A DNA stretch of 59,055 nt, filler included. It is 8 parts of 8 records of this genome, joined end to end, with 100 filler letters (N's around TTAATTAATTAA, not from the genome) between each part and the next. Parts side by side here need not be neighbours in the genome. Positions count along the whole stretch, not along the records: positions 41,639 to 49,712 come from SRR31147125_3677; 7 more parts are not named here. The stretch is one strand, 5' to 3'. A program made the position numbers and the translations under genes. Shown piece by piece: positions 750-49,812 of this stretch. The notes beneath the pieces are model-generated. The model made no database searches. It worked only from the letters and a program-made list of their open reading frames with translations, and was not told where the DNA came from. Each line of letters begins with the position of its first letter. Position 1 is the first letter of the stretch.

Positions 750-2377
750 TACTCCTCACTTTCATTAATATATGATTTTACTTGTTCGTATGTGTACATA
801 ATATGTCTGTTTAATCTTCGATATTTTGCTACTATATCAGAATAGATAGCTGTAGAGATTGGCTTATCCTCAATGACAACATCTGTTTCTAATTTTTCAT
901 TAATTTCTTTGCATTTTTTTAAGCCACCTTCAATTAAATGTTTATCCTTGCTTTTTAATACTTTTGCGAGAATCTCATAATTTTCTTCAATTGTTTCATG
1001 TAGTAGGGCTATTTTTTTCTTTTTAGAGACTTTTATATTGTTATTTTTTGCTTTTAAATAAAGTTTAACAAGTCCAGCTCCGTAGTCACCAAATGATTCA
1101 TACTGATCTGAAATCTCTATAAGGTGCTGAACCTCTATTAGTATGTTATTAGAAGACGAGTAACGTAGTAGTGCAGTTAATTGCTCTCTAATTCGAGCAT
1201 TGATTTTATCAAATTTTTGCTCCGTTGCTACAATATCTTCTGTTATTTGTTTTTGCTCTTCTTCGTTGATTTCTTTATCATTTTTAATAAGGTATATGAA
1301 TTTATCTAAAACTTCTTGAAATTCATCAGACATTTTTTCTATTTGTAAGCTACTTTTTTCCAAAACTATAAATGGTGTTTCAACTAACTGTTTTTCAAGC
1401 GAAGAGCTGACCTCTTCACTATCTCTTTCCGGCATTACTTTGTCCCATACATCTGCAATGAAAGAAGTGAATGGAAGTAAAATAAAACTATTTAAAACAT
1501 TAAAGATAGTGTGTGCAAAAGCAATGAAAGTGACAATATCTTCTGTTTTGGCTATTAGGTGAACTAATTTCACATATTGATGAAATAGTGGAATAACAAC
1601 CATTACACCAGTAATTTTTATCAATATATGTGAGTATGCAGCTTTTCTAGCTGTTGTACCTGTGCCAAGAGAAGCTAGAAATGCAGTAATAGTCGTACCA
1701 ATATTTTGTCCAAGGACAAGAGCTACAGCTGAATCTGCAGTAATAAGTCCCTGTGAAGCGAGTGTCATAGTAATTCCCACAGTAACAGCAGAAGATTGAA
1801 CAATTGCAGTAATAAATGCTCCTGTAATAGCAGAAAGGATTATTCCATAATATGATGATGCATCAAATTTTTGAAATAACAAAATAAATCCTTGCATTTC
1901 TTTTAAAGGGGCTATGCCATTTTTCATTAACTCTAGACCAAAGAAAATCATACCAAATCCCATTAAAAGTAGAGCTTTTTTTCTTGATTTGCTTTTTTTA
2001 ACGAATATGGAGAGTAGTGCTCCCAAGCCTGTTAGTGGTAAACCAAACTTACCAAGTTTAAGGACAAGAAGCCAACCAGTAAAGGTAGAGCCAATATTTG
2101 AGCCTAGTATAACTCCCAATGCTTGAGTGAGATTCATTAATGAGGCTTCGATGAAACCAACAACCATTACTGTTGTAACAGAGCTTGATTGTAAAATAGC
2201 AGTGATGATCATTCCGGAAATTAGTGCAGAAATTCTGTTACCAGTTATTTTTTTAATAAGTTCCCGTAGCTTATTTCCGGCTAAATCCTGAACATTTTTT
2301 GACATCAAATTCATACCATAAATAAAAACACCTAAACCACCAATTACTGCGAAGATAATATTAACTGTTAAAGACAT
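749..2377 (-). CDS. Na+/Pi cotransporter family protein with PhoU-like C-terminal region
   Basis: Two repeats TAILQSSS...GSNIGST and TAIVQSSA...GQNIGTT; many TM helices; helical hydrophilic tail. Stop overlaps amrA ATG (TAATG). Confidence 0.9.
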   Translation of the reverse strand: MSLTVNIIFAVIGGLGVFIYGMNLMSKNVQDLAGNKLRELIKKITGNRISALISGMIITAILQSSSVTTVMVVGFIEASLMNLTQALGVILGSNIGSTFTGWLLVLKLGKFGLPLTGLGALLSIFVKKSKSRKKALLLMGFGMIFFGLELMKNGIAPLKEMQGFILLFQKFDASSYYGIILSAITGAFITAIVQSSAVTVGITMTLASQGLITADSAVALVLGQNIGTTITAFLASLGTGTTARKAAYSHILIKITGVMVVIPLFHQYVKLVHLIAKTEDIVTFIAFAHTIFNVLNSFILLPFTSFIADVWDKVMPERDSEEVSSSLEKQLVETPFIVLEKSSLQIEKMSDEFQEVLDKFIYLIKNDKEINEEEQKQITEDIVATEQKFDKINARIREQLTALLRYSSSNNILIEVQHLIEISDQYESFGDYGAGLVKLYLKAKNNNIKVSKKKKIALLHETIEENYEILAKVLKSKDKHLIEGGLKKCKEINEKLETDVVIEDKPISTAIYSDIVAKYRRLNRHIMYTYEQVKSYINESEE

Positions 2378-2561
2378 AAAATCACTCTCCTTCAGTATAA
2401 GAAGATGTAAATAAATAATAACTGTTACTTATATTTACGGAATAAATCCTAAATTCTTCTTTTTTTAGTGCAAAATATAGAAAGAAAAGCAAAAATTATT
2501 GTGGCAATATAGATGTATATAGTTGATAGAATTAATATGAAATAATAAAAACGACAGATGA

Positions 2562-2795
2562 GGCAGTCGTGATAATTTTGATATCGATGACGTTTATGTT
2601 TCGAGAGAAGAACTTGATGATATTGCCTATTCGCTAAATATTTCTTATCAAGATGACGTAGATGGCTATTATTGGGAATTAAATGGTCTTAGTGAAAAAG
2701 AAGTTAATTTTGATTTAATTGAAATGATGATAAACGAGCATGAGATAGAGTATAGCGATAGAAAAATGCATATAGAGTTGGTTAAACAAAAATAG
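2562..2795 (+). other. Open acidic ~77-codon frame without a normal start (gene remnant or small gene with damaged 5' end)
   Basis: GSRDNFDIDDVYVSREELDDIAYSLNISYQDDVDGYYWELNGLSEKEVNFDLIEMMINEHEIEYSDRKMHIELVKQK*, stop-free in very AT-rich DNA and followed by a terminator hairpin. Confidence 0.4.
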
Positions 2796-2803
2796 CGATA
2801 GAA

Positions 2804-2830
2804 AAATCCCCTATTACACTTAGGGGATTT
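2804..2830. terminator. Bidirectional intrinsic terminator hairpin
   Basis: AAATCCCCTA-ttacact-TAGGGGATTT, perfect 10-bp stem between convergent frames. Confidence 0.75.
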
Positions 2831-2844
2831 ATATATATATATTA

Positions 2845-5087
2845 TTATAATTTCAGTTCTTCTTTTTTTATAAGTTTTTCAATTACCTCAGGGTACAAAG
2901 GCTTATGAAAATAATAACCTTGCGCTATATGAACATTCATTGATTTCATAAGTTTTAGTTGCTCTTTTGTTTCAACACCCTCTGCAACGATACTTAAGTT
3001 TAAGCTTTTTGCTAAGTTTACAATGATTTTAGAGATAGTTCCATCGTCTTTTTCTGGAAAATCTTTTACAAATGTTCTGTCGATTTTTAATGTGTCAACA
3101 GGGAAGTTTTTAAGGTAACTAAGTGACGAGTATCCTGTACCAAAGTCATCAATTGAGAGTTTAAACCCATGAGCTCTAAATTGATTAAGTTTAGTTGTTG
3201 TTTTCTTTAAATCTTCCACCAGAGTTCCTTCTGTGATTTCTATCTCAAGATCTGATGGCTCTAAGTTGTATTTGTCCAGAAATTCAATAATCTCTTCAAC
3301 AATCTTGTCATTTTTGAATTGTATTGGTGATAAGTTAATAGCAATATGACCTATCTCAACTCCAGCATTTCTCCATTTTCTCATCTGCGAACATGCTTCA
3401 TTAATCACCCATGTACCAATACTTGCGATCTCTCCGTTTTCCTCTGCTATTGGAATAAATTCAAAAGGAGAAATGATTCCATTTTTAGCATGTTGCCATC
3501 TAATGAGGGTTTCCACTCCAATAATGTCCTCTGTAAATATATTAACCTTAGGTTGATAAACTAAGAAAAGTTCATTATAATCAATAGCATATTTCAAGGC
3601 ATTTGATAGTTCCAATTTTCTTTTAGAATCACTACTTAGATTACTTGAGTAAAAATGATAGTTATTCTTTCCATTATTTTTTATATGCTCAAGAGCGGTG
3701 TGTGCATTTTTTATGATATCCTCAGTTGTACCTCCATCAGTTGGGTATACTGCAATACCCATACTAGTTGAAACCTTATATTCAGTGCTATTTATTAGAA
3801 ATGGTTTTTTCATTACCTGTTTTATCTGTTCTGCAATAAAACTAATTTTTTCTGCGTTTTCTGCATCAGGAATTACAATTGCAAATTCATCGCCACTGAT
3901 TCTAGCAAACGTATGGTCACTTCGAAGTGATGTAGACACTCTTTCAGTTACGTTGCAAATTAATTCATCACCTGAGGAATAATCGAAATATTTATTTATA
4001 TCTTTAAAGTTATCAATATCAAAATAGATGAAACCAACGTTTTTCTTATTTATATCCGCTTTTAAAAAAGCCTGGGTTAGTCGATCTCTCATTAAAAATT
4101 GATTTGGTAAATTAGTTAATAAATCGTAATTACCTAGTTTATGTATACTTTTTTTATTTTCCCTTAGTTCTGTTAAATCTTCAAACATTCCCATATACAT
4201 ACTTTCATTTTTTTTAACATGAATTTTTGAAAAGATTGTCCAACATGGGAAGATTTCACCATTTTTCTTTCTTAACCAGAGTTCTCCCCGCCATTCATTG
4301 TTTTTAATTAAGGAATTTGATATATTCTTAACAGAGTTTTCAGAATGAATAAAGGAGTCAAGAGTCTCAAGTTCAACATTCAATATATCTTTTGAATCAA
4401 AAAGAGTTATGTTGCAAAATGCCTGATTAGCTCTTATAATTTTCTTTTTATGATCAAAAATAATAATTCCATCTTTTGAGTTGTCAAAAACTTCATCACT
4501 AAGTAAAGAATCCCTATGAAATGCCTTAAATTTTGTTATATCTTGTGCGATTCCTCCAATTAAATTTAAGGAATTATTTTCATCTGTTATAGGAAATTTA
4601 GAACATAAAAAAGTTTTTTCGTTATAATCAAACTCAAAAGGTTTTGAAGTTCCATTTTTAAGAATTTTGTTATCTGTATTTTCAAGTTCTTCACTTAAAG
4701 TAGCAGGAAAAATATCTTTTGTTCTTTTCCCCACAATCTCTTCTTGATTTAGGTCAGATAGAAACTTTGAGTTTGCTAAAAAATATTCTCCGTTAAGTTT
4801 TTTTATAAAAACCCATAGGTTAGAGTTATCAATTATTGCCTGAATCATGCTGTAATACTTATTTTTTCTTTTTCCTCTTTGTTTCTTTTTCTTACTTCTG
4901 ACAAGAGTAAGAAATAGATAAGGGAAGTGCTGATGATTACAAAAGTTAAACCTTTATAAGTTTGAAGTTTTGTAAGTAAATCAGGATCTTTAACTAAAGA
5001 GCTCAAAATGGTATCAGATAGTTTTACCCATAGTGTACTAAATATAAAATATAATCCGCTAACTTTAAGTAAAGGCGAAATTTTCAT
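2845..5087 (-). CDS. Membrane-anchored PAS-PAS-GGDEF-EAL c-di-GMP enzyme (ORFs 4845-5105 and 2845-4848 joined; frameshift at T6 run 4862-4867)
   Basis: N-terminal 2-TM segment (LWVKLSD...QTYKG) typical of sensor anchors; PAS (WRGELWLRKKNGE); YDLLTNLPN, SGDEF, ETLIRW, DDFGTGYSS, AEGVET, QGYYF. One extra A gives ...KEKNKYYSMIQA. GGAGG RBS before ATG 5087. Confidence 0.85.
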
Positions 5088-5387: not shown

Positions 5388-5487
5388 NNNNNNNNNNNNN
5401 NNNNNNNNNNNNNNNNNNNNNNNNNNNNNNNTTAATTAATTAANNNNNNNNNNNNNNNNNNNNNNNNNNNNNNNNNNNNNNNNNNNN
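5388..5487. other. Artificial contig spacer
   Basis: 44 N + TTAATTAATTAA (stops in all six frames) + 44 N. Confidence 0.99.
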
Positions 5488-6915: not shown

Positions 6916-7884
6916 TTGTCGATTGAAATCAGATCTTTTCAGCAAAATGATTCCAGAGAATGGGATGATTTTGTCTGGAATTCGAACAATGGAACACTCT
7001 TTCATACAAGAAAATTTTTAGAATATCATCCACCAGAAAGATTTACAGATCATTCACTCAGTTTTTACGATGGAAATAAAAGAATTGCCCTTTTTCCAGC
7101 GATAGACTATAACGACAATGGAAAACGAGTCTTGATTTCCCACCGGGGTGCTTCTTACGGTGGTTTTATAATCAAAGATACACTGTCGATCAGGGATTCA
7201 TTCGATCTGGTAAAAAAAATAATCAGCTATGCACGAGAATCCGGATTTGATTCGATTGATTTGACGCCACCACCTCAGATCTATCTCCGGAGGCCGAGTA
7301 ATTATATCGATTTTGCCTTGCAGCAAAATGGATTTTCTTATCGAAAAAGAGAGATTTCAAGTGTCATTCCTCTTGATTTTAGTGCAAATGAAATAGACAA
7401 GTCCTTTAATGAAAGTTCACGTCGTGCTGTCAGGAGAGCTCAAAAGTTGGGCGTAGAGGTTCGGGAGTCGGAAGATTATGCCGAGTTTTATCGTATTCTT
7501 AAAAAGAATTTAAGGCTTCGGCATGATGTAAGCCCGACTCATACCCTTGAAGAGCTTTTGCTAATTAAAAAAATATTCCCGGATAGAATAAAGCTCTTTG
7601 CCGCTTATTTTCAAGATACGATGGTGGCCGGTGTTGTTATGTTTGTATGTAATCCCCGGGTAGTACTGGCTTTTTATATTAGTCATAATGAGGAATATCA
7701 ACAATACCGTGGTGTGAATATCCTTTTTCATGATATTTGCAAGTGGGGTATTGAGGAGGGTTATTCTTTTCTGGATTTTGGCATATTTACCGTCAATGAA
7801 GATCCAAATTGGGGCCTGGCACGATTTAAAGAGAGTTTTGGTGCGCAAGGTGTTTTTCGTGACAGCTGGCGTTTTGAGTTTTAA
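6916..7884 (+). CDS. GNAT/FemAB-like acyl- or aminoacyl-transferase associated with cell-surface glycan genes
   Basis: WDDFV...NGTLFH, SHRGASYGG, RRAVRRAQKLGV, LDFGI...GLARFKESFGA. Confidence 0.78.
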   Translation: MSIEIRSFQQNDSREWDDFVWNSNNGTLFHTRKFLEYHPPERFTDHSLSFYDGNKRIALFPAIDYNDNGKRVLISHRGASYGGFIIKDTLSIRDSFDLVKKIISYARESGFDSIDLTPPPQIYLRRPSNYIDFALQQNGFSYRKREISSVIPLDFSANEIDKSFNESSRRAVRRAQKLGVEVRESEDYAEFYRILKKNLRLRHDVSPTHTLEELLLIKKIFPDRIKLFAAYFQDTMVAGVVMFVCNPRVVLAFYISHNEEYQQYRGVNILFHDICKWGIEEGYSFLDFGIFTVNEDPNWGLARFKESFGAQGVFRDSWRFEF

Positions 7885-15914: not shown

Positions 15915-16014
15915 NNNNNNNNNNNNNNNNNNNNNNNNNNNNNNNNNNNNNNNNNNNNTTAATTAATTAANNNNNNNNNNNNNNNNNNNNNNNNNNNNNN
16001 NNNNNNNNNNNNNN
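15915..16014. other. Artificial contig spacer
   Basis: N44-TTAATTAATTAA-N44. Confidence 0.99.
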
Positions 16015-21560: not shown

Positions 21561-21660
21561 NNNNNNNNNNNNNNNNNNNNNNNNNNNNNNNNNNNNNNNN
21601 NNNNTTAATTAATTAANNNNNNNNNNNNNNNNNNNNNNNNNNNNNNNNNNNNNNNNNNNN
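21561..21660. other. Artificial contig spacer
   Basis: N44-TTAATTAATTAA-N44. Confidence 0.99.
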
Positions 21661-27969: not shown

Positions 27970-28069
27970 NNNNNNNNNNNNNNNNNNNNNNNNNNNNNNN
28001 NNNNNNNNNNNNNTTAATTAATTAANNNNNNNNNNNNNNNNNNNNNNNNNNNNNNNNNNNNNNNNNNNN
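27970..28069. other. Artificial contig spacer
   Basis: N44-TTAATTAATTAA-N44. Confidence 0.99.
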
Positions 28070-35102: not shown

Positions 35103-35202
35103 NNNNNNNNNNNNNNNNNNNNNNNNNNNNNNNNNNNNNNNNNNNNTTAATTAATTAANNNNNNNNNNNNNNNNNNNNNNNNNNNNNNNNNNNNNNNNNN
35201 NN
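35103..35202. other. Artificial contig spacer
   Basis: N44-TTAATTAATTAA-N44. Confidence 0.99.
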
Positions 35203-39850: not shown

Positions 39851-40441
39851 TTATCTTCTGTTTAGTTCTACCTTTTCATACTCAAGGTATTTATATAAAG
39901 TTGTTTTGCTACCAATCCCGGTCATAGTACATATTTCATCTGCTGTGTAGTCGCCCGTTAAGTAATATTTTTTTGCTAAAGCTGCTTTTTTCTTTGCACT
40001 TTTTGATAAGCCCGGTTTTCTTCCACCGGTTTTTCCTTTTCTTTTTGCTGCCTCTAATCCTGCCTTTGTTCTTTGTACAATAATTTCCCTTTCATATTCA
40101 GCAAGTGCTGCAAAGATTCCAAACTGCATTCTTCCCATGGCAGAACTTGTATCAATCCCATCATTGATACTTTTGAATCCAATTTCAGCTTTATTTAAAT
40201 CATCTATTATTGTCACCAGGTCTTTAAGCGATCTCCCGAGCCTGTCGAGCTTCCAAATCACAAGCACATCCCCGGCCCTCATATATTCTAAAGCCTTATC
40301 AAGCTCCTTTCTTTGTGAAAGCGCTGAGACCTTTTCAGAATAAATTTTTACACAACCTGCCTTTTTAAGCGCATCAATCTGCAAATCCAGGTTCTGTTCC
40401 TTAGTACTTACCCTTGCATACCCAATTAACTGTCCTGCCAT
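39851..40441 (-). CDS. Serine recombinase (resolvase/invertase family)
   Basis: GYARVSTKEQ (catalytic Ser), VIWKLDRLGRS, AEYERE, RTKAGL...GGRK, C-terminal HTH. Confidence 0.95.
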   Translation of the reverse strand: MAGQLIGYARVSTKEQNLDLQIDALKKAGCVKIYSEKVSALSQRKELDKALEYMRAGDVLVIWKLDRLGRSLKDLVTIIDDLNKAEIGFKSINDGIDTSSAMGRMQFGIFAALAEYEREIIVQRTKAGLEAAKRKGKTGGRKPGLSKSAKKKAALAKKYYLTGDYTADEICTMTGIGSKTTLYKYLEYEKVELNRR

Positions 40442-41538: not shown

Positions 41539-41638
41539 NNNNNNNNNNNNNNNNNNNNNNNNNNNNNNNNNNNNNNNNNNNNTTAATTAATTAANNNNNN
41601 NNNNNNNNNNNNNNNNNNNNNNNNNNNNNNNNNNNNNN
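41539..41638. other. Artificial contig spacer
   Basis: N44-TTAATTAATTAA-N44. Confidence 0.99.
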
Positions 41639-41740
41639 TTTTTCTTTTTTTACAGCTTCCTGCAGAGCTCCTAGGATATCTTCACCGGGATTCAGTCTGA
41701 TCATCACAACCCTTTTGATTTCGGCATTAGTTATTGTCAT
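41639..41740 (-). CDS. PPC/DUF296 domain protein, N-terminal part (second copy)
   Basis: MTITNAEIKRVVMIRLNPGEDILGALQEAVKKE; AGGAG RBS; absent from ORF track. Confidence 0.75.
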
Positions 41741-41775
41741 GAGTTCTCCTTAGTTTGATTTTGATATTTAATCAG

Positions 41776-42489
41776 TTAGATGTTTTTACCAGCCTCACCT
41801 AATGTTTCATCAGGTTCAATTCCAAGAGCTTTATAATGCTGTGCACGTACTTCCTGATCTGCTTTAAGGACTGCCGTGGCAAAATAGACGACCTCTTCTG
41901 CCCTATCCTGAGGGATAACCAATACTCCATCATCATCAGCACAAATAATATCACCGGGGTAAACCGCTACTCCTGCACAATCTACAGGAACATTGACACC
42001 ACCATTTTCCAATCTTGCATATACATGATTAAATGTTCTCTGTGTGCAAAAAACATTAAGCTCTTCCAGATTACACTCATAGGAATCACGACAGGCACCA
42101 TCGATAACAACTCCAACTAATCCCTCATGCATAGCGTATAAGCCGACTTCAGATCCCCAGATACCACCAGGATATCCGCCATTATCAAATACAATAACCT
42201 TGTCTTTTGCTTGGCCATCCTTTAATCCATCAAGAAAAGAGTAGGTATCACTGCATCTTGTCTTCATCTCAGTAATATATTCTTCCGCTGTAGAACATTT
42301 CTTGACCTGAGCTTGTGTCGGTATCAGCTTAACTGTATAGGCATATCCTGCAAATCGAAGGCCTGGACGAAGTGGGCGCATGTCACTGCGCATCGTTCCT
42401 GCATTTACCAGACCCAACGCATCCATTCCATCACCCAGATCTGCTAAACGCAGATTCCTGATTTTCTCTAAAAGTTCTTTCTTAACCAT
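41776..42489 (-). CDS. RraA family / HMG-CHA aldolase-like protein
   Basis: ADLGDGMD, FAGYAYTV, IWGSEVG, VIDGACRD, VNVPVDCAGVAVYPGDIICADDDGVLVIP. Confidence 0.88.
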   Translation of the reverse strand: MVKKELLEKIRNLRLADLGDGMDALGLVNAGTMRSDMRPLRPGLRFAGYAYTVKLIPTQAQVKKCSTAEEYITEMKTRCSDTYSFLDGLKDGQAKDKVIVFDNGGYPGGIWGSEVGLYAMHEGLVGVVIDGACRDSYECNLEELNVFCTQRTFNHVYARLENGGVNVPVDCAGVAVYPGDIICADDDGVLVIPQDRAEEVVYFATAVLKADQEVRAQHYKALGIEPDETLGEAGKNI

Positions 42490-42520
42490 TCATTCACTCC
42501 TTATAAAATGTATCAATTCA

Positions 42521-42949
42521 TTATTTTGACTGTAACACAGCTATATTGTTCTCGTCTTTCACCCTTTCAACACTTAAACCTTTAATTTCGACCAAAGAAA
42601 TTTCACTCAGATAAACAACGGTGGTATCTTCCTCTATGTGACCTGTATAGGTTTTGTCAAGATTTGATATCACCATATGAAAATGGGGTTCTCCATCAAT
42701 TATTACCCCCTGTAGAGAGGCAAGTTCTATTGGATCCTCCAATGTAATGAATTCATCTACAGGTTCTTTCTCATATCCGACAACCCTATGAAAAACTGCT
42801 TTCTGCAGAGATCCGATTGCACTTGTAATAATTGCATCCTTTATTCCAAGCTGCTGCATCTGTGATCTTATACTTTCAAGTACTTTCTCCCCTCTCTGCA
42901 AATTGATTATGACAACTCGTCCAAGACCTTCTCCGGTAAAAACTTTCAT
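42521..42949 (-). CDS. PPC/DUF296 domain protein
   Basis: INLQRGEKVLES, SAIGSL, ELASLQG, PHFHMVIS, GHIEE (HxH...H metal site). Confidence 0.87.
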   Translation of the reverse strand: MKVFTGEGLGRVVIINLQRGEKVLESIRSQMQQLGIKDAIITSAIGSLQKAVFHRVVGYEKEPVDEFITLEDPIELASLQGVIIDGEPHFHMVISNLDKTYTGHIEEDTTVVYLSEISLVEIKGLSVERVKDENNIAVLQSK

Positions 42950-42980
42950 GCAGCAACTCCTTTCCTATGTAATCTACTTC

Positions 42981-44775
42981 TTAATCACTCATAATCATTA
43001 GCAAAGCCCAGTCCTTTGCATCGGGAAGTTTCGGAAATTTCCACATCCAATCTGATCTGTATGAAGTTTAAGAGAGCTTTCCAAATTTGGATCAGTGACC
43101 CAATTTCCGGATCGCGGATTAAACCAGTAGCAGTCATAATCACAATCAGGCAATATTGATCTTATTGTTGGTTGCGGACAATTTTCTTCGAAATAACACA
43201 TAACTAATTTTTTATCCGGTGTATGGGCACAATAAGCCCACCCGGTATACCCATATGGATCACCCGCCTTGTTCGGAACAATAAGTTCAGCATTAGGAAT
43301 AAGATCCTGATATCGTGATCCTATGGAAAAATAAATTCTTTCAGATGAGATACCTGTTTGCCTGAATCATATTGGAGTGCTTCCCACATGGTGTTTGCAG
43401 AACTTTCTTCCCTATTGGCAGCCCACATACCTTCTGCTCCATATATATAACCCGCAAAGCCTCCTGAAAGAAAACTTCCATACATTCCTGACCTGCAGTT
43501 ACGCTCTGCTTCACGACTATCTGCATGAGGAATATTGTCGGGAAAACCAGGATAATATGGTTCTCCATTCATTGCGGGTAACGTAGGATCTGAATGGTAG
43601 ATTTCCGTAAGGTGCCAGTAGTGCGTATGCTCTCTCCAATTACCTATTTGGTGAAAGGTTAGCCATGCAGCCTCATTAGGTGTTCCAAAATTCAAAAGCG
43701 TCGATGGTCCTGCATTAGTTCCAACCGGATTCCCATGTGGAGGAGAGCCATACTTGCTTACTACATCATTAGCCGGCCTGTTAAATTCTCTTGACGGAAT
43801 CGAGTAATGAGCAAAATCATAGTGAACCGGACTTAAAAGTGTATGATGGGCATGATACCGTGAAAAAATATAGTGAACATACCGTGCATAACTATCCGGC
43901 CAGGGATAGTAATTCTTCCATAGCTGACTGATATCTCTTCTAATAGCCTCAATAAAAGCAACCATACCATTTGCATTCAGGTAATCTATTTTTCTATCCA
44001 GGTACTGGAAATAAACAGGATTTATTTTTTCAAGATCGGGAATCACCTGTTCCAGACCAGGAACTTTCCCAGGACATAAAAAGGCTTTCCCTCCCTCATT
44101 TTCCATAGTCTTTGCTGGTAATTCAGCATAGTTTTCAATAGATTGATTACCATCCGCGGGCCATGCAGCTCGTACGGTTGTCTTTTTCTCATCATCAAGG
44201 ATTAAGGTTGCAGGATATCCATCATCATCCCAGTTTGGAAACGCGGCAATCATTGCAATCCCATTAAATTCCTGATTCTTCCTGTACTGCACCATATCCT
44301 GAAAACTCATGTTTTCATGAACGATCGGAACCTTATCTGGTTCTTCACTGCCCCAAGGATATCGCCATGTAGCGGTAGACCACCAAGTATCGGCCAATAA
44401 GTAAAAAGGAGTTCCATCTGCATGCTCAAAAGCGTGTCTGTTTGAGGTACTTCGAATGAACCCTCGTCTTAATGGATTTAATTCTAGTTCTTTTTCTGTC
44501 CAGCCTTCGGCAACACATAACCCTTCAACACCCTGCAAGCCAGTATCAACAACATTGGCCGAAGATACCCAACTCCATTCACCCGGACTTTCTGCAACAA
44601 AACGGATTTTAAAGGTATTTCCACCATCCCAAAAGCCATAAATACGTTTATTGAATCCAGGGCCGATTAGGTCAATCCATACATCAACTTCCAAATACGG
44701 ATTGGTATAATTTTTTTGCGCAATCAGGGTTATTTCCTGTGTTTCCCATATATGTATTAATTTATTATCTTCCAT
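42981..44775 (-). CDS. DUF5060/DUF4038 domain protein (apiosidase-like putative glycoside hydrolase), two frameshifts (~43328, ~43037)
   Basis: NPYLEV, GFWDGGNTFKIRF, FEHADGTPFYLLADTWW, YFQYLDRKIDY, NGEPYY, GYIYGAEGMW; rejoined tail WFNPRSG...DWALL. Confidence 0.78.
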
Positions 44776-44803
44776 AATTATTTGAGTCCATTTAATTGTT
44801 TGA

Positions 44804-45694
44804 TTAGTATTGAAGTGATTCACGATGCATGATTTTTCTCAACCCTATCGTCAAAATCAATGAAAGGAGAAAAATAACAACGGCAACAGCACTTCCGAGT
44901 CCTATATTAAAGTTTTCAAAAGCATGTACAAACATGTGCATTGGCAATACTTCAGTAGCATGGTTAGGGCCGCCTTTTGTCATGACATAAATGAGGTCAA
45001 ATGCCCTTAGAGACCCGGTTACCTGAAGAACAATAACCATTTTGGCAATATCCCAGGATAGTGGAATAATCATATACCAAATCATCTTCAACCCAGAAGC
45101 CCCATCAATACTGGCTACCTCCAGTACTTCTTGAGGCATATTCATAAATCCGGCATAAAACAGCATGACTTGAATTCCAACAAGCCTCCAGGAGTTTGCC
45201 AAGATGATAAAAATTATAGCCTGTTTCGGATCTGCCAAGGGCGGGAAATACTTATGTCCCAGTCCGATTATTTCCATGAATGGTTTAAGAAGGCCGAACG
45301 CAGGACTATAGATATATCCCCAGATAAACCCGACTGCAACTGTCATAAGGATTACAGGAATAAAAAAAAGTGTTTTGAAAAATCTGTATCCCCGAAGCTG
45401 AATATAGAGGAAATAACCAAGCAGGAATCCTATGACTACCTGCAAAAAGGTGGTTCCAAACATAAAAATCAGAGAGTTCTTCACTGAATACCAAAATAAT
45501 GAATCACCGAATATTCTTATGTAATTTTCAAAACCGACTGCAACACTGCGAGTTATCGTTACCCATCTCTTTGTACTTAAGAGAAACCCTTGAGTGAGAG
45601 GACTCAAAACCAGAACAGTATATACTAACAATCCAGGTATGAGAAACAATAATATTGTTGATGTTTTACCCTTCATTAAATTATTTTTACTCAT
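44804..45694 (-). CDS. Carbohydrate ABC transporter permease
   Basis: VGFENY, FFIPVIL, EVASIDGA (EAA loop), FDLIYVMTKGGP, GLGSAVAV; start uncertain (45694-45730). Confidence 0.92.
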   Translation of the reverse strand: MSKNNLMKGKTSTILLFLIPGLLVYTVLVLSPLTQGFLLSTKRWVTITRSVAVGFENYIRIFGDSLFWYSVKNSLIFMFGTTFLQVVIGFLLGYFLYIQLRGYRFFKTLFFIPVILMTVAVGFIWGYIYSPAFGLLKPFMEIIGLGHKYFPPLADPKQAIIFIILANSWRLVGIQVMLFYAGFMNMPQEVLEVASIDGASGLKMIWYMIIPLSWDIAKMVIVLQVTGSLRAFDLIYVMTKGGPNHATEVLPMHMFVHAFENFNIGLGSAVAVVIFLLSLILTIGLRKIMHRESLQY

Positions 45695-45710
45695 AATATT
45701 TCCTTTCCTT

Positions 45711-46574
45711 TTAACCTTTGATAGCACCAACAGTCATCCCTTTGACGATGCGTTCCTGCAGCAGTACATAAAAGATGAGGTTAGGAATTGAGGCTATGAT
45801 CAAACCTGCACTTAGCTGGGTATATTGAGAACTAAACTCTGCAATAAAGCCAAGAACTCCTATTGGCAGAGTTTTTATCAGCGGCCGACCAAGCATCAGC
45901 ATCGCTACCAACAGCTCATTCCAACAGGCAAGAGAAGTAAGAATAGTTATTGTCAGAATACCATCTTTGGATAATGGTAAAATTACATGATAAAATATTT
46001 TTGGATATGAACATCCGTCAATTATTGAGCACTCTTCCAACTCTTTAGGAATCGTGATCATAAAACTTTCTAAGATAAAGACCGATATAGGAATACGAAA
46101 AGCAGCATAAATAAATCCTAAGGCAACAAGATTATTCTGAAGCCCAAAATCCATAGCCATAATGTAAATTGGGATTACTGCAGAATGGATTGGGATCATC
46201 ATTCCGGCAATAACGATATAATAGATTATCCGATTAAATCTGAATCTGAACCGTGAAAGGACATAGGAAATAGTAGTAGCACATACACCGGCAACTATTA
46301 CAGCAACGCCTGTGGAGATGATGCTATTCAGCATATACCTGCCCATATTACTTTTTGTCCAGGCATCAAAGTAGTTTATAAATTCAATTTTCTTCGGAGG
46401 ACCCCAAATATTAACTGCCAATTCACTCTGCGATTTCAATGAAGAAAACAACAGCCAAACTAAGGGAAGAAGAACAATGATTCCCCATATAATCAAAACT
46501 AACTGTATAGCAGCTCGCGTAATTCTGGTTCCCGATTTTACCCCGGGTTGTTTTGAAGATACTTTCTTACGCAT
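45711..46574 (-). CDS. Carbohydrate ABC transporter permease
   Basis: SSLKS, NYFDAW, GMMIP, IPKELEECSIIDG, WNE, QERIVKGMTVGAIKG. Confidence 0.93.
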   Translation of the reverse strand: MRKKVSSKQPGVKSGTRITRAAIQLVLIIWGIIVLLPLVWLLFSSLKSQSELAVNIWGPPKKIEFINYFDAWTKSNMGRYMLNSIISTGVAVIVAGVCATTISYVLSRFRFRFNRIIYYIVIAGMMIPIHSAVIPIYIMAMDFGLQNNLVALGFIYAAFRIPISVFILESFMITIPKELEECSIIDGCSYPKIFYHVILPLSKDGILTITILTSLACWNELLVAMLMLGRPLIKTLPIGVLGFIAEFSSQYTQLSAGLIIASIPNLIFYVLLQERIVKGMTVGAIKG

Positions 46575-46669
46575 AAGCAATTATTCCTTTTAGTATCATG
46601 TATAAGCTGATTTTTTGATTGTACTAAACACATAATAAATATTTGTGTTTTTTTGAATAATGATTAAAC

Positions 46670-46704
46670 AGGAGCAGACAGTAATTTTGAAACTGTCTGC
46701 TCCT
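46670..46704 (-). terminator. Stem-loop between substrate-binding protein and permease genes (partial terminator or mRNA stabiliser)
   Basis: AGGAGCAGACAGT / ACTGTCTGCTCCT, 13-bp perfect stem. Confidence 0.7.
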
Positions 46705-46730
46705 AAATAAGGTTAAATTGCGATTATTAC

Positions 46731-48074
46731 TTATTCTGCAGCCATTAAATAGTCATCTGCAGCTTTCTGAACTTCGGCAACCGCTTCTTCAACAGTATAC
46801 TGTCCGGTAATAATTCCAGGCATAGCTGTTTTCTTAATTGCAAGGTCAATAGCCGGAGGAGCAAATGTATCCATAGATGGAATAATTATCTCTGCGTTCA
46901 GCAATGTTTCAGCACACTGCTGCATAACAGTTGATACATTTGATTTATCATAATCAATTTCTCCTGGGTAGAGATTCTTGCCTTCGGATAGTACAGGTTT
47001 CCAGAACTCATGAGAACTGAGTGCTTTAACCCATTCAATACTTGCATCCATCTCGTCATCTGGCTGACCCGCTGAAGCAATAAGACCTACTATAGTTCCA
47101 CCAACTCTTGCTTCGGCATCTCCCATTGGCATATCTGTCATGACAGGGAAATCTGCTCGTCGAACATTTTCAATAAATCCTTCTTCAGCCATACTTTGCC
47201 ATCTACCGGGAAGCCACTGACCTTCAAAATAGGTTGCAGCTTCACCACGTACAAACATCTGATCAGCTTCATTTGAGCTTAGTGCCAGCACACCTGAAGG
47301 ATAGGCTCCTGCGTTAACCATTTCGGCAAATTTTTCCATAGCCTGCGGAAATCCATATTCAGGATTGTCCCATTGATCCTTTGCATCCCCAATCGCAAGC
47401 GCGGCAGCATTATCATAACCACCAGTTCTTGCCAGAAGAATTGATGCCAACCATGCAAATCTAATATCTTTACCGCCTGTTACTGTTGCAACAATGCCCT
47501 CTTTTTTAGTTTCTTCTGCGAGCGCGATAAGTTCATCAAATGTCTCAGGAACATCCCAGTCATATTTATCAAATAGAGCTTGGTTGTAAAATAGACCACC
47601 TACATGGGCTTCAAAGGGAGCCATCATGACTCTACCTTTATCATCTTCTGAAAAATAGAGAATTGCATCGGAAAAGCGCTCTTTAAATTCCGGATGAGCT
47701 GGGTCTTCATATACATCTGCCCAGTCAATCATCAGATCATCCCTCATAAATTCTCTTGCATAGCTTAGAACTAACCATGATGTATTTGGTGGATTTCCTG
47801 AGGCCATTTCTACGGTAATTTTAGTTCGTAATTCTGCTGAAGGTAATGCATCATGAATGATGTTAATATTCTCATTTTCTTCATTGAACTGATCAACGTA
47901 AGATTGAAAATAGTCACCAAAACCACCTTCACCGGCTGTATGTGGAGACATGTGACGAATTTCAACTACATCTCCACTCTCTTCTGCGCCCTGGGCGCAT
48001 AACCCAGCAATGGAAATAAAAATCACCATTACAGCCAAAATTGTTCGTTTTACAAAAACTTTTGTTGTTTTCAT
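46731..48074 (-). CDS. Carbohydrate ABC transporter substrate-binding protein
   Basis: Signal ending CAQGAEE (spirochaete-like); MASGNPP, LFYNQALF, VPETFDEL, FVRGEAATYFEGQW; GGAGG RBS. Confidence 0.9.
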   Translation of the reverse strand: MKTTKVFVKRTILAVMVIFISIAGLCAQGAEESGDVVEIRHMSPHTAGEGGFGDYFQSYVDQFNEENENINIIHDALPSAELRTKITVEMASGNPPNTSWLVLSYAREFMRDDLMIDWADVYEDPAHPEFKERFSDAILYFSEDDKGRVMMAPFEAHVGGLFYNQALFDKYDWDVPETFDELIALAEETKKEGIVATVTGGKDIRFAWLASILLARTGGYDNAAALAIGDAKDQWDNPEYGFPQAMEKFAEMVNAGAYPSGVLALSSNEADQMFVRGEAATYFEGQWLPGRWQSMAEEGFIENVRRADFPVMTDMPMGDAEARVGGTIVGLIASAGQPDDEMDASIEWVKALSSHEFWKPVLSEGKNLYPGEIDYDKSNVSTVMQQCAETLLNAEIIIPSMDTFAPPAIDLAIKKTAMPGIITGQYTVEEAVAEVQKAADDYLMAAE

Positions 48075-48124
48075 AATTCCTCCTATTATTCTCTTGCAAA
48101 CCGCAAGGGTTATACCGTATATAT

Positions 48125-48139
48125 TTGATATACCATCAA
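48125..48139. promoter_or_regulatory. Putative GntR operator upstream of the ABC operon
   Basis: TTGAT-ATACC-ATCAA inverted repeat; shares TGATATA core with the site at 48910. Confidence 0.45.
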
Positions 48140-48177
48140 GTATAAAATTTTTTCAGCCTTCTTCCTCATAAATTAAA

Positions 48178-48858
48178 TCAGTATACTGGTGAAAGATTTT
48201 CTACTAATTTTCCGTCCTGATCATATATTCCGCTATGGAGAATATGTTCTCTCATAACATCTTCTGCAATTTGCGGATCTTTCTGTTTCAAAGCAATAAG
48301 CAAACGCATATGATTGTCTTTGGGAATTTGTGAGCGATGTTCTTGGGCACTTGATTGAGCCCTCTGAAGCAATGTAAACAAGTTAATTCTTTTCAAAGCA
48401 TCAATTAAGGACTTATGCCCTGTAAATTTTGCCAGATTTATGTGTAATTCATGGTGCAACTCTCTAAACTTTTCTCCAACATCTCCTTTGTTTTCCATTT
48501 CATCTAACCTGTGAGCAAGTGCTTCAAGAGACTGAATATCATGATCATTCAATTTTAATGATATAATTCTCACAACTTGACATTCTACGGCCTCACGAAG
48601 GGCATACCAATCAAGAATTTTTTCATAGGTTACTTTTACAACTCGAGAACCACGATATGGCATTGACTCAACAAGACCATCTGCTTCCAATCTTAAAAGC
48701 GCTTCAAGAACTGGGATTGTACTGACTTTGGATATCCCAGCCAATTTTCTACGAATCAGTTTTTCACCTGGTTTTAGTTCTCCAGTCAGAATCATATTAT
48801 ATATACAAGCATAAGCTTTATCCGTAGAGCTCTGAAATTCATTTTCTTGCAAGGTCAT
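48178..48858 (-). CDS. GntR family regulator (FCD domain)
   Basis: ILTGELKPGEKL, VSTIPVLEALLRLEADGLV, LREAVE, ELHINLA, AEDVMREHI. Confidence 0.92.
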   Translation of the reverse strand: MTLQENEFQSSTDKAYACIYNMILTGELKPGEKLIRRKLAGISKVSTIPVLEALLRLEADGLVESMPYRGSRVVKVTYEKILDWYALREAVECQVVRIISLKLNDHDIQSLEALAHRLDEMENKGDVGEKFRELHHELHINLAKFTGHKSLIDALKRINLFTLLQRAQSSAQEHRSQIPKDNHMRLLIALKQKDPQIAEDVMREHILHSGIYDQDGKLVENLSPVY

Positions 48859-48901
48859 GATTTTATATCCTTGGATAAGGTGTATTTTTCTTCAGTAATT
48901 A

Positions 48902-48929
48902 TGATATAAATGATATATCATATATATCG
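48902..48929. promoter_or_regulatory. Putative GntR autoregulatory operator
   Basis: Perfect palindrome ATGATATATCAT (48910-48921) with flanking TGATATA-like half sites. Confidence 0.45.
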
Positions 48930-49050
48930 ATTGCGCAACATTAATTTTCACAAATCTTCTTATTATTACTAATTGGTTACTATATATGTATTTATGGACC
49001 GTACTATCAAACGGACAGCTTTATGTGTGAAGTCACAAAGGACAATTATT

Positions 49051-49701
49051 TTAATTTTCCTCTACCGTTTCCCCGCTCTCCAGCTCACCAACCACACTTA
49101 CCTGCAGCACAGATCGCCCCTCAAGAAACGCCTCCAGTTCATCACCAATCTGCACCGGTCCGACACCTTCCGGGGTACCGGTCATCAGGATGTCGCCCGG
49201 GTCGATGGTAACAAACTGTGAAACATGCGCAATCAGCTTATTCACAGGAAATATCATATCGGCTGTAGTTCCGTCCTGTCGGACATCACCATTCAACTTT
49301 AATGTTAAATGCAGATTCTGAACATCATGTTCCAGATCATCAAGCTCTATCCAGGAACCGACGGGAGCCGACCCCTCAAACGCTTTAGCAATCTCCCAGG
49401 GAAACCCCAGTTTCTTCTGTTTTCGCTGCAGATCTCGTGCCGTGAAATCGAATCCCAGTGACACTTTGGAGTAACAGGAGGGAGCCTCCTCTTCGGTAAT
49501 ATTTCTGCCGCCGATATCGATCAGTACCGCCAGCTCCACTTCATGATGCACATCTTCAGAGAACTCAGGATAGACAAAAATCTCGGGATCAACCGGGACA
49601 GCATTATCCGGCTTGAAGAAAAACATTGGTTCCGCGGGAGGATCGCCGCCCATCTCTTTGGCATGCGCAAAATAATTTTTCCCGATACAGATGAATTTCA
49701 T
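49051..49701 (-). CDS. Fumarylacetoacetate hydrolase family protein
   Basis: ICIGKNY, FFFKP, HHEVEL, DFTARDLQ, WEIAKAF, PGDILMTGTPEGVG. Confidence 0.93.
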   Translation of the reverse strand: MKFICIGKNYFAHAKEMGGDPPAEPMFFFKPDNAVPVDPEIFVYPEFSEDVHHEVELAVLIDIGGRNITEEEAPSCYSKVSLGFDFTARDLQRKQKKLGFPWEIAKAFEGSAPVGSWIELDDLEHDVQNLHLTLKLNGDVRQDGTTADMIFPVNKLIAHVSQFVTIDPGDILMTGTPEGVGPVQIGDELEAFLEGRSVLQVSVVGELESGETVEEN

Positions 49702-49712
49702 ATAATACTCCC

Positions 49713-49812
49713 NNNNNNNNNNNNNNNNNNNNNNNNNNNNNNNNNNNNNNNNNNNNTTAATTAATTAANNNNNNNNNNNNNNNNNNNNNNNNNNNNNNNN
49801 NNNNNNNNNNNN
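49713..49812. other. Artificial contig spacer
   Basis: N44-TTAATTAATTAA-N44. Confidence 0.99.

Follow-up and report, generated by a model that had tools for sequence, protein, structure and literature searches.

A DUF296 gene paired with an RraA-like gene in a recurrent, uncharacterized and putatively glycoside-degrading cluster: a possible metalloenzyme

The founding member of DUF4038 is BT1012 of Bacteroides thetaiotaomicron, a GH140 endo-apiosidase, and catabolic routes for D-apiose were reportedly described by Carter et al. in 2018. MvaA and MvaB form the mevalonate catabolism pair of Pseudomonas mevalonii. DUF296 (PPC) proteins, whose solved members are trimers, are routinely annotated as 'DNA-binding' owing to plant AT-hook proteins; structures have been solved since 2006, and we know of no enzymatic function for them. 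The described apiose routes comprise one transketolase route and three oxidative routes via ApnO, according to PMC13753588, and the apiose cluster of E. coli SE15 (ECSF_RS02670-02715) contains two SDRs, a CUT2 ABC system, an FGGY kinase and aptAB (PMC13001218). Here, we analyze a window of 59,055 nt (the whole stretch of DNA presented above), in which a single contig of 8,074 nt (41639-49712) carries genes for an ABC importer, a DUF5060/DUF4038 protein, a DUF296 protein and an RraA-like protein. A full-text literature search, with subscription-only papers and supplements outside it, returned no paper linking these families or describing the cluster.

We tentatively read this contig as a fragment of a conserved, uncharacterized catabolic cluster for an imported glycoside, carried by anaerobic plant-polymer degraders (Spirochaetota, Bacillota and Atribacterota), in which the DUF296 protein may serve as a metalloenzyme. 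Calling of open reading frames (ORFs) and clear Pfam assignments place all of the contig genes on the minus strand, in the order FAH-family protein, GntR/FCD regulator, binding protein, permease, permease, DUF5060+DUF4038, DUF296, RraA-like protein and a DUF296-like stub of 33 codons, and the genes named in a preliminary description of this DNA are thus all present on one contig. Since the last five genes are separated by gaps of ~30-35 nt or overlap, they form one operon.

The recurrence of this gene linkage was followed in three sets of loci. In the RraA-ascertained set, a 16-sequence alignment retrieved 79 loci from species-representative genomes, whose ORFs were clustered into families named by Pfam/NCBIfam. 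DUF296 is found in 42 of these 79 loci and is immediately adjacent to RraA in 18. Permeases orthologous to those of the window (at least 45% identity) occur in 29 loci, 23 of them with DUF296 and 17 with genes resembling HMG-CoA (3-hydroxy-3-methylglutaryl-CoA) lyase and HMG-CoA reductase (HMGL and HMGR). Five of the six importer loci without DUF296 end, at a contig or locus edge, before its usual place; in the sixth, L007, DUF4038 lies directly ahead of the binding protein. DUF4038 was detected in 18 of the 79 loci (14 via tblastn and four as C-terminal fragments at locus edges, from the ORF clustering), and ABC importer, DUF296 and DUF4038 are jointly present in 12. The linkage exceeds chance by far. 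The metagenome set comprises 80 further loci from a scan with the window's RraA, 11 of which have DUF296 directly upstream of RraA. L102 and L104 contain, in this order, a solute-binding protein (SBP), two permeases, DUF296, RraA, HMGL, HMGR and an SDR, with a GntR homologue nearby, and L103 matches this arrangement in part; L133 contains, in order, an SBP, two permeases, DUF296, RraA, DUF4038 and GntR.

The arrangements fall into three types. Type A, found in Oscillospiraceae, Clostridiaceae, Christensenellaceae, Blautia, Treponema and Spirochaetia, has DUF4038, the two parts of a split transketolase (TK_N and TK_C), a histidine kinase, an AraC-type response regulator, DUF296, SBP, two permeases, RraA, a Zn-dependent alcohol dehydrogenase (Zn-ADH), HMGL, HMGR, a xylose-isomerase-like TIM barrel (XylTIM), a 2-hydroxyacid dehydrogenase (2HADH) and glycerate kinase, an order typical in Bacillota. 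Type B, from Herbinix and other Lachnospiraceae, has RraA, two putative glycosidases, XylTIM, 2HADH and an FAD oxidoreductase, and is without DUF296. Type C, from Bacillaceae and Paenibacillaceae, has SBP, permeases, an SDR, DUF296 and RraA beside GntR, an Fe-dependent alcohol dehydrogenase (Fe-ADH) and a two-part UxaA-type dehydratase.

An independent check was ascertained through DUF296, by running a profile against a sample of 401 genomes from across one carrier's phylum; members of the subfamily occur in 13 of them. With the central genome excluded, four of the remaining 12 (L084, L086, L087 and L088) have, directly downstream of DUF296, an RraA-like gene from a clade that is separate and branches deeply (quick tree), and the pairing therefore exists in two distant RraA lineages. 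L085 (G046:C5:336561-354986), a second, paralogous cluster in the central genome, which also holds the type A locus L047, contains permeases, a GFO-type oxidoreductase, XylTIM, SBP, DUF296, a GH2-like glycosidase, Zn-ADH, HMGL, HMGR, 2HADH and glycerate kinase, and no RraA. Thus, DUF296 also keeps company with the dehydrogenase/HMGL/HMGR set, and one glycosidase can take the place of another. Remote DUF296 relatives adjoin NhaC-type transporters, amidohydrolases and cupins; the order in L094 and L096 is NhaC-type transporter, DUF296, AhpC/redoxin-like fragment, amidohydrolase and cupin, and parts of this set are present in L091 and L095. These surroundings are catabolic rather than regulatory. 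The recurrent linkage that the preliminary description had made its own check is borne out in the RraA, metagenome and DUF296 loci. The placement of RraA between two DUF296 genes, which it had also emphasized, is not a recurrent arrangement, as none of the other 176 cluster loci fetched (79 + 80 + 17) has RraA flanked on both sides by DUF296.

The Atribacteria-type loci L078, L111, L112 and L121 bring together, within one locus, a pair of RraA paralogues from different clades, two ABC importers, a split transketolase, DUF296 and a 137-residue protein that appears glyoxalase/VOC-fold-like by eye. The Blautia-type loci L048, L052, L154 and L155 have no HMGL/HMGR and carry Dak1/Dak2, an RpiB-like isomerase and a second XylTIM beside DUF4038 and RraA, which suggests a ketose (dihydroxyacetone or tetrulose) among the products.

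The window proteins are closest to those of the Spirochaetales locus L001 (permeases 70% and 71%, DUF296 74% and RraA 70% identity), and the window RraA pairs with that of L001 in a quick tree (SH-aLRT 95), amid Spirochaetaceae sequences. Given this closest relative, the sequence beyond the contig end very probably held HMGL, HMGR and a dehydrogenase; no homologues of the three are found in the rest of the window. The earlier view of the locus as one GntR-linked operon holds for the genes that are present, but the contig carries only part of the pathway.

The DUF296 protein was modeled with AlphaFold on 30 orthologues (mean pLDDT 96.6). His54, Glu75, His89, His91, His104, Glu106, Glu116, Glu121 and Arg129 are invariant in all 30 aligned orthologues, and the HxH...H pattern noted earlier in the complete copy (His89, His91 and His104) is thus real. 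A Foldseek search with the model returned structural-genomics DUF296 entries, headed by 2h6l ('metal-containing protein AF0104', E 5.6e-10), then α-acetolactate decarboxylases (ALDC; E 4e-3 to 5e-2, probability 1.00) and human PTD012/C11orf54 (E 1.6e-2). VIA-align gave Z-scores of 16-19 for DUF296 entries (18.9 for 2h6l and 18.0 for 2dt4), 7.4-9.4 for nine ALDC entries (rmsd of 2.3-3.8 Å over 103-119 residues, in their residues ~100-250), 5.1 for PTD012, and at most 3.7 for all remaining entries. The protein thus has the fold of the solved members AF0104 and PH0802. A profile comparison with four ALDC sequences from Paenibacillaceae genomes (hhalign), itself a weak match (E 0.2), aligns His89/His91/His104 with ALDC His175/His177/His188 (PHFHMV...GH versus YHLHFI...GGH), which we take to be the Zn ligands. 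The Pfam scan gave no PF03306 (ALDC family) match for DUF296, the likeness being at the level of the fold only, and PF03306 was not found in five carrier genomes. No fused forms of DUF296 were found among proteins of 250-2000 residues, which is weak evidence.

In a 2025 commentary, C11orf54/PTD012, a Zn/three-His protein structurally related to ALDC, is presented as a β-keto-L-gulonate decarboxylase, an assignment backed by fusions with the preceding 3-dehydrogenase (PMC12435205). In the clusters described here, DUF296 is always accompanied by a dehydrogenase, either a Tdh-like Zn-ADH or an SDR. Because both characterized enzymes of the fold decarboxylate α-hydroxy-β-keto acids, and because of this constant dehydrogenase partner, we propose a decarboxylase or ketol-isomerase role for DUF296, as a putative Zn enzyme predicted to have the AF0104/ALDC/PTD012 fold.

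The RraA-like protein is part of a close-knit orthologous group, with at least 120 matches of 58-78% identity in Spirochaetia, Treponema, Clostridia, Atribacteria, Paenibacillus and Bacillaceae (52-78% over all orthologues). It shares its fold and RD motif with the metal-dependent pyruvate lyases; the motif (Arg134 and Asp135) is invariant in 16 of 16 aligned sequences, and it matches 3noj (LigK/PcmE, an HMG/CHA aldolase of the RraA fold) with a phmmer E-value of 7.9e-14. It passes none of the curated NCBIfam cut-offs: the top model, NF006093, scores 101 bits against a cut-off of 208, and the HMG/CHA aldolase models NF006731 and TIGR02798 score 77.5 bits against 179 and 66.2 against 304.5. The RNase E regulator RraA was considered and rejected, with 49.3 bits against 136 (NF006875, TIGR02998) and a length of 237 versus ~161 residues, with an extra N-terminal region and an insert. 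FlDet, a 237-residue enzyme of the RraA family, dehydrates and decarboxylates 2-keto-3-deoxyglucarate to α-ketoglutarate semialdehyde, as given in PMC8563752. As FlDet is a dehydratase/decarboxylase and no cut-off is reached, aldol cleavage is one of several possible chemistries, and the label 'RraA aldolase' of the preliminary description is not secure. We regard the protein as a putative divalent-metal enzyme of the C-C lyase or decarboxylase type.

Such chemistry also admits a different substrate. The clusters could serve to break down a common acidic sugar without a branch, for instance a uronate, an aldarate, Kdo, Dha or another 2-keto-3-deoxy acid, with the RraA-like protein working as FlDet does and not as an aldolase on a tertiary carbinol; we consider this unlikely. 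FCD-type GntR regulators usually sense carboxylates, which counts in its favor, as does the 2HADH, XylTIM and glycerate-kinase module, which fits tartronate-semialdehyde/hydroxypyruvate chemistry. The NF006093 score, however, is far under its cut-off, no α-ketoglutarate semialdehyde dehydrogenase is present, and the HMG-CoA lyase and reductase homologues would be left unexplained.

The latter homologues come from relatives of the window locus, where complete clusters go on with a Zn- or SDR-type dehydrogenase, HMG-CoA-lyase-like and HMG-CoA-reductase-like genes, and many add a split transketolase, XylTIM, 2HADH and glycerate kinase. The HMGL orthologue of L047 passes the HMG-CoA lyase model NF004283, its 363 bits exceeding the cut-off of 246. 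The HMGR-like protein resembles class I, scoring 295 bits with TIGR00533 (cut-off 441.8) and 27 bits with the degradative class-II model. Aligned to solved reductases, it keeps the EGKIG, GDAMGMN, DKK, GQD and SH motifs, which we take to be catalytic, as well as the NRG-type arginine, presumably the binder of the HMG carboxylate. The Zn-ADH is Tdh-like (TIGR00692, 303 bits, under the cut-off of 458), and there is no ambiguity about the glycerate kinase (480 bits, cut-off 168). With AptA and AptB of E. coli SE15, the split transketolase shares 40% and 33% identity, values that are not diagnostic.

In the catabolic reading that we favor, the CUT1 ABC system would import a small glycoside or oligosaccharide, from which a cytoplasmic glycosidase (DUF4038/GH140-like here, GH2-like in the paralogous cluster) would free an unusual moiety. 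This moiety would be degraded by a fixed enzyme set: the dehydrogenase (Tdh-like Zn-ADH or SDR), DUF296, the RraA-like metal-dependent lyase or decarboxylase, and the HMGR-like and HMGL-like proteins. By analogy with its fold relatives, DUF296 would act as a Zn enzyme and not as a regulator, decarboxylating or ketol-isomerizing an α-hydroxy-β-keto acid from the neighboring dehydrogenase, next to the RraA-like step. The HMGR-like/HMGL-like pair would activate and cleave the moiety; in many genomes, C3 products may drain via hydroxypyruvate and glycerate to phosphoglycerate, and the split transketolase would follow.

A branched pectin sugar, such as apiose or aceric acid, is an attractive candidate substrate, because enzymes of the HMG-CoA lyase and HMG/CHA-aldolase types cleave tertiary carbinols, and because of the ALDC relative and the GH140-family glycosidase. 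What the cluster degrades is thus possibly a sugar or sugar acid with a branch, similar to apiose or aceric acid. Several schemes can be drawn, none of them preferable from the sequences: apionyl-CoA to glycolyl-CoA and dihydroxyacetone; aceric acid via a 3-hydroxy-2-oxobutanoate branch; or isosaccharinate-type acids to acetyl-CoA and hydroxypyruvate. A more specific proposal, and a doubtful one, is a CoA-dependent route for a tertiary-carbinol pectin sugar (D-apiose or aceric acid of rhamnogalacturonan-II or apiogalacturonan). Here, the HMGR homologue would oxidize an aldehyde or alcohol to a thioester, the HMGL homologue would split the thioester at the branch carbon, the Tdh-like dehydrogenase would make an acetolactate-like α-hydroxy-β-keto acid, and DUF296 would decarboxylate it.

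Several points weigh against the catabolic reading. The conserved arginine of the HMGR-like protein fits genuine HMG-CoA or mevalonate better than neutral apiose; thus, the branched or unusual sugar route of the preliminary description accords with the HMGL- and HMGR-like genes of complete clusters, which suit a tertiary-carbinol substrate, but this residue disfavors neutral apiose as the substrate of the HMGR-like enzyme. RraA is unaccompanied by DUF296 in 37 of the 79 loci, all of the Lachnospiraceae type B clusters among them, and DUF296 by RraA in L085 and L089-L098; since each occurs without the other, they are not obligate partners. DUF4038 is absent from 11 of the 29 loci with an orthologous importer, and a sequence search of solved chains retrieves only 4n0r, an uncharacterized glycosidase, for it. 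The window copy has a disrupted glycosidase gene, and nothing more of the pathway is found on the contig or in the remainder of the window. The DUF296-ALDC profile match is weak by itself, and a fold in common is no proof of a common function. The substrate, each reaction and the order of the steps are what we infer from observed gene content, recurrence, fold and conserved metal-site residues.

A counterpoint is LmiA, a DUF296 protein of enterohemorrhagic E. coli O157 with the same three histidines, which is reported to bind a 17-bp site of the LEE1 promoter in gel-shift, ChIP-qPCR and footprinting experiments (PMC7667037). Together with the titles of several solved DUF296 entries ('putative DNA-binding protein'), it lends some weight to the view that DUF296 is a DNA-binding or other non-catalytic accessory, such as a regulator or a chaperone or subunit of the RraA-like protein, with the chemistry done by other enzymes. 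For the clusters studied here we think this improbable: each already has its own regulator (GntR/FCD, or histidine kinase plus AraC-type response regulator), gaps of 16-35 nt separate DUF296 from its neighbors within the structural operon, the window seems to hold two copies of it, and its nine residues invariant across three phyla (four His, four Glu and one Arg) form an active-site pattern. The metalloenzyme assignment of the preliminary description therefore stands in part, with the fold and His triad of two Zn-dependent decarboxylases on its side and the DNA binding reported for LmiA against it.

The state of the window copy is a separate matter, and bears on the glycosidase gene in particular. 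Its catalytic TIM-barrel part is intact, covering positions 2-313 of the 320 of PF13204. As the preliminary description had stated, the protein has no signal peptide by inspection; its tblastn homologues begin just 5-10 residues ahead of the aligned region, which leaves no space for one, and the enzyme is thus cytoplasmic. A point absent from that description is that the gene is not intact through its C-terminal domain. The ORF stops early, at residue 500, whereas intact homologues (47-53% identical) have 584-637 residues. Four tblastn homologues follow frame -1 to 43327 and then frame -3 over 43330-43046 (39-48% identity), and the last ~20 residues ('...DAKDWALLM...', with the conserved '...DWALL...' end) lie in a third frame. 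The gene thus contains two -1-type shifts within ~300 nt of its 3' end. The shifted stretch matches PF12904, the usual C-terminal domain of the family, weakly (E 0.0011).

It is conceivable, though we rate it as unlikely, that the window locus is a decaying or mis-assembled, non-functional remnant, independent of the role of the intact cluster elsewhere. The two frameshifts in an otherwise intact set of genes point that way, as does the coverage: one public run was found with the contig (share 0.27), in short contigs of depth 1-3, with zero over 42180-45149. In Treponema L019, DUF4038 is also in pieces. Both shifts, however, adjoin short homopolymer runs, where errors of sequencing or assembly typically arise, the seven other genes are full length compared to orthologues, and the catalytic part of the glycosidase is intact. 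Assembly error and pseudogene are equally plausible as explanations of the frameshifts. The L019 fragments (2281-3144, from a Treponema metagenome-assembled genome) are ORFs of 172 and 89 residues, and the DUF296 gene of that cluster is likewise split over two frames (7158-7391 and 7390-7554).

Least probable among the alternatives to a DUF296 decarboxylase or isomerase is a Zn-dependent sugar lactonase or hydrolase in a non-phosphorylative route (sugar to lactone by the dehydrogenase, lactone to sugar acid by DUF296, then dehydration to a 2-keto-3-deoxy acid, cleavage by the RraA-like aldolase to pyruvate and an aldehyde, and reduction of the aldehyde by Fe-ADH), which is suggested by the type C gene order with its dehydratase (SAF + GD_AH) and no lactonase candidate (L023, L028, L032, L038, L049 and L076; L136 and L142 in metagenomes) and by the hydrolysis of p-nitrophenyl acetate by PTD012, but the two characterized enzymes of the fold are decarboxylases, the esterase is now regarded as a side activity (PMC12435205), and the window's cluster type has no dehydratase.

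The coordinates of the features are collected in Table 1. The window consists of eight contigs joined via seven linkers, each 44 N + TTAATTAATTAA + 44 N, and the GC content of the joined contigs (a draft or metagenome assembly) spans 26%-54%. Since the window is a concatenation, genes on opposite sides of a linker are not genomic neighbors; the contig of interest has N-linkers on either side, and its 'operon' is therefore cut at both ends. A consensus scan of the contig found 20 promoter and 5 terminator sites, where shuffled sequence leads one to expect 23.7 and 5.9, and thus gave no signal; an Rfam scan of the window had no matches. A neighboring contig holds a 196-residue ORF (39851-40441) followed by small hypothetical ORFs, unrelated to the cluster; its N-terminus (…YARVST.EQ…) is one that we take to resemble a serine recombinase/resolvase.

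Table 1. Features of the analyzed window; positions count along the whole stretch
Feature	Position	Strand	Evidence
FAH-family protein, 216 aa	49051-49701	minus	PF01557 178.3 bits
GntR/FCD transcriptional regulator	48178-48858	minus	PF00392 48.8 bits, PF07729 63.4 bits
CUT1-type solute-binding protein	46731-48074	minus	SBP_bac_1/8
ABC permease 1	45711-46580	minus	BPD_transp_1, PF00528
ABC permease 2	44804-45730	minus	BPD_transp_1, PF00528
DUF5060 + DUF4038 (Pfam 'Apiosidase-like', GH140 family), catalytic part	43321-44823	minus	PF16586 60.1 bits, PF13204 117.7 bits
DUF4038 C-terminal β-sandwich remnant, two other frames	42985-43330	minus	tblastn; PF12904 E 0.0011 (weak)
DUF296/PCC protein, 142 aa	42521-42949	minus	PF03479 70.6 bits (cut-off 25), residues 11-123
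RraA-like protein, 237 aa	41776-42489	minus	PF03737 103.1 bits (cut-off 24.5)
Probable second, divergent DUF296-like gene, N-terminal 33 codons, ends at linker	41642-41740	minus	sub-threshold PCC match
Linkers	5388-5487, 15915-16014, 21561-21660, 27970-28069, 35103-35202, 41539-41638, 49713-49812		

The second DUF296-like gene is probably a divergent paralogue. When it is compared by BLAST with all proteins of the fetched loci, the 12 best matches all fall, in register, on DUF296 N-termini, and it is 31% identical to the first copy. Its PCC match is sub-threshold (E 0.012; 16.3 bits, cut-off 25; profile positions 1-24). The second DUF296 gene claimed earlier is thus favored by the BLAST matches, but only 33 codons of it are present and the Pfam match falls short.

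The binding protein has a lipoprotein-like N-terminus by inspection, and its best solved relatives bind xylo- or chitin-oligosaccharides (4g68, E 2e-27; the chitin-oligosaccharide binders 7ehp and 7eho). Its orthologues (44-55% identity) occur in 21 of the 79 loci, and permeases 1 and 2 are 52-70% and 52-71% identical to those of related loci. GntR homologues (family f29) are found in six of the 79 loci, including Spirochaetaceae L075 (43% identity), and in the metagenome loci L102, L104, L122, L133 and L152. The FAH protein scores 196.5 bits with NF007967, slightly below the cut-off of 201, and has no homologue in any of the 79 related loci (singleton family f454); that it belongs to the cluster is doubtful. 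FAH and the RraA-like protein each correspond to one half of the FAH-RraA fusion family NF009399 (positions 23-212 and 269-459 of 501), and this fusion may be a Rosetta-stone type hint of a functional link between FAH and RraA.

What is new here is a sugar-utilization operon with unassigned enzymes, in which the assignment of DUF296 is the most valuable testable point. The window copy is truncated and possibly damaged, and what makes the finding interesting is the pattern seen across the family. Placed in a defined genomic context, beside a dehydrogenase and a C-C lyase, DUF296 gains a directly testable activity, after the 2025 model of C11orf54, and culturable carriers include Ruminiclostridium cellobioparum, Paenibacillus abyssi, Sediminibacillus massiliensis and Gracilibacillus kekensis. 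The CoA-dependent route, if true, would add a fifth pathway for apiose or provide the first for aceric acid. In that case, it would also provide the first enzymatic function for the prokaryotic PPC/DUF296 family, and the domain shared with plant AHL proteins would descend from a Zn decarboxylase. HMGL and HMGR homologues in glycoside-utilization loci of gut, rumen, termite and sediment anaerobes may reveal fermentation of rare branched pectin sugars, a gap in maps of fiber degradation.

Compared to the described D-apiose routes, complete relatives of the cluster likewise carry a split transketolase and a xylose-isomerase-like TIM barrel, but have DUF296, RraA-like, HMGL-like and HMGR-like genes instead of the remaining apiose genes. 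The Pfam scan of the contig found no CUT2, FGGY or AptA/AptB markers, and the neighbor families of the related loci (Pfam/NCBIfam) include neither an FGGY apulose kinase nor a CUT2 ribose-type binding protein; none of the recurrent neighbor families has an annotation suggesting ApnO or RuBisCO-like proteins, for which no search by name or reference sequence was made. The absence of these markers from the contig agrees with the earlier proposal of a route unlike the described apiose pathways. The DUF4038 protein shares with BT1012 its family, with a PF13204 match of 117.7 bits, although BT1012 was not retrieved with it by phmmer at E<=0.01; it differs in its N-terminal DUF5060, its cytoplasmic location and an ABC importer in place of a Sus-type locus. 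As in the MvaA/MvaB pair, genes for an HMG-CoA reductase and an HMG-CoA lyase are adjacent, whereas the reductase of the relatives is class-I-like and the pair is embedded in a glycoside-utilization locus. The RraA-like protein has the fold and the RD motif of LigK/PcmE and FlDet, and the ~237-residue length of FlDet, but is found in a sugar-import context, not in aromatic or alginate catabolism.

For the DUF296 protein, three comparisons are instructive. LmiA (Z4267) of E. coli O157:H7 is also a DUF296 protein that stands alone and has a putative Zn site of three histidines, but is reported as an activator of LEE1 transcription (PMC7667037), and its gene belongs to a pathogenicity islet, with ABC-type genes next to it, rather than to a catabolic operon. 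ALDC (PF03306; 4bt2/4bt3), whose substrate is an α-hydroxy-β-keto acid with a tertiary carbinol, superposes with its Zn-binding C-terminal half on the DUF296 model, and its HxH...(10)...H aligns with HxH...(12)...H of DUF296; in contrast, DUF296 is half as large (142 versus ~240 residues), with no significant sequence similarity (hhalign E 0.2). C11orf54/PTD012 (DUF1907) is a much larger, two-lobed, eukaryotic protein and a distant match, but has a superfold in common with DUF296 and holds its Zn by three histidines; according to PMC12435205, the protein acts straight after a 3-dehydrogenase in a sugar-acid route; it was long mis-annotated through a side activity.

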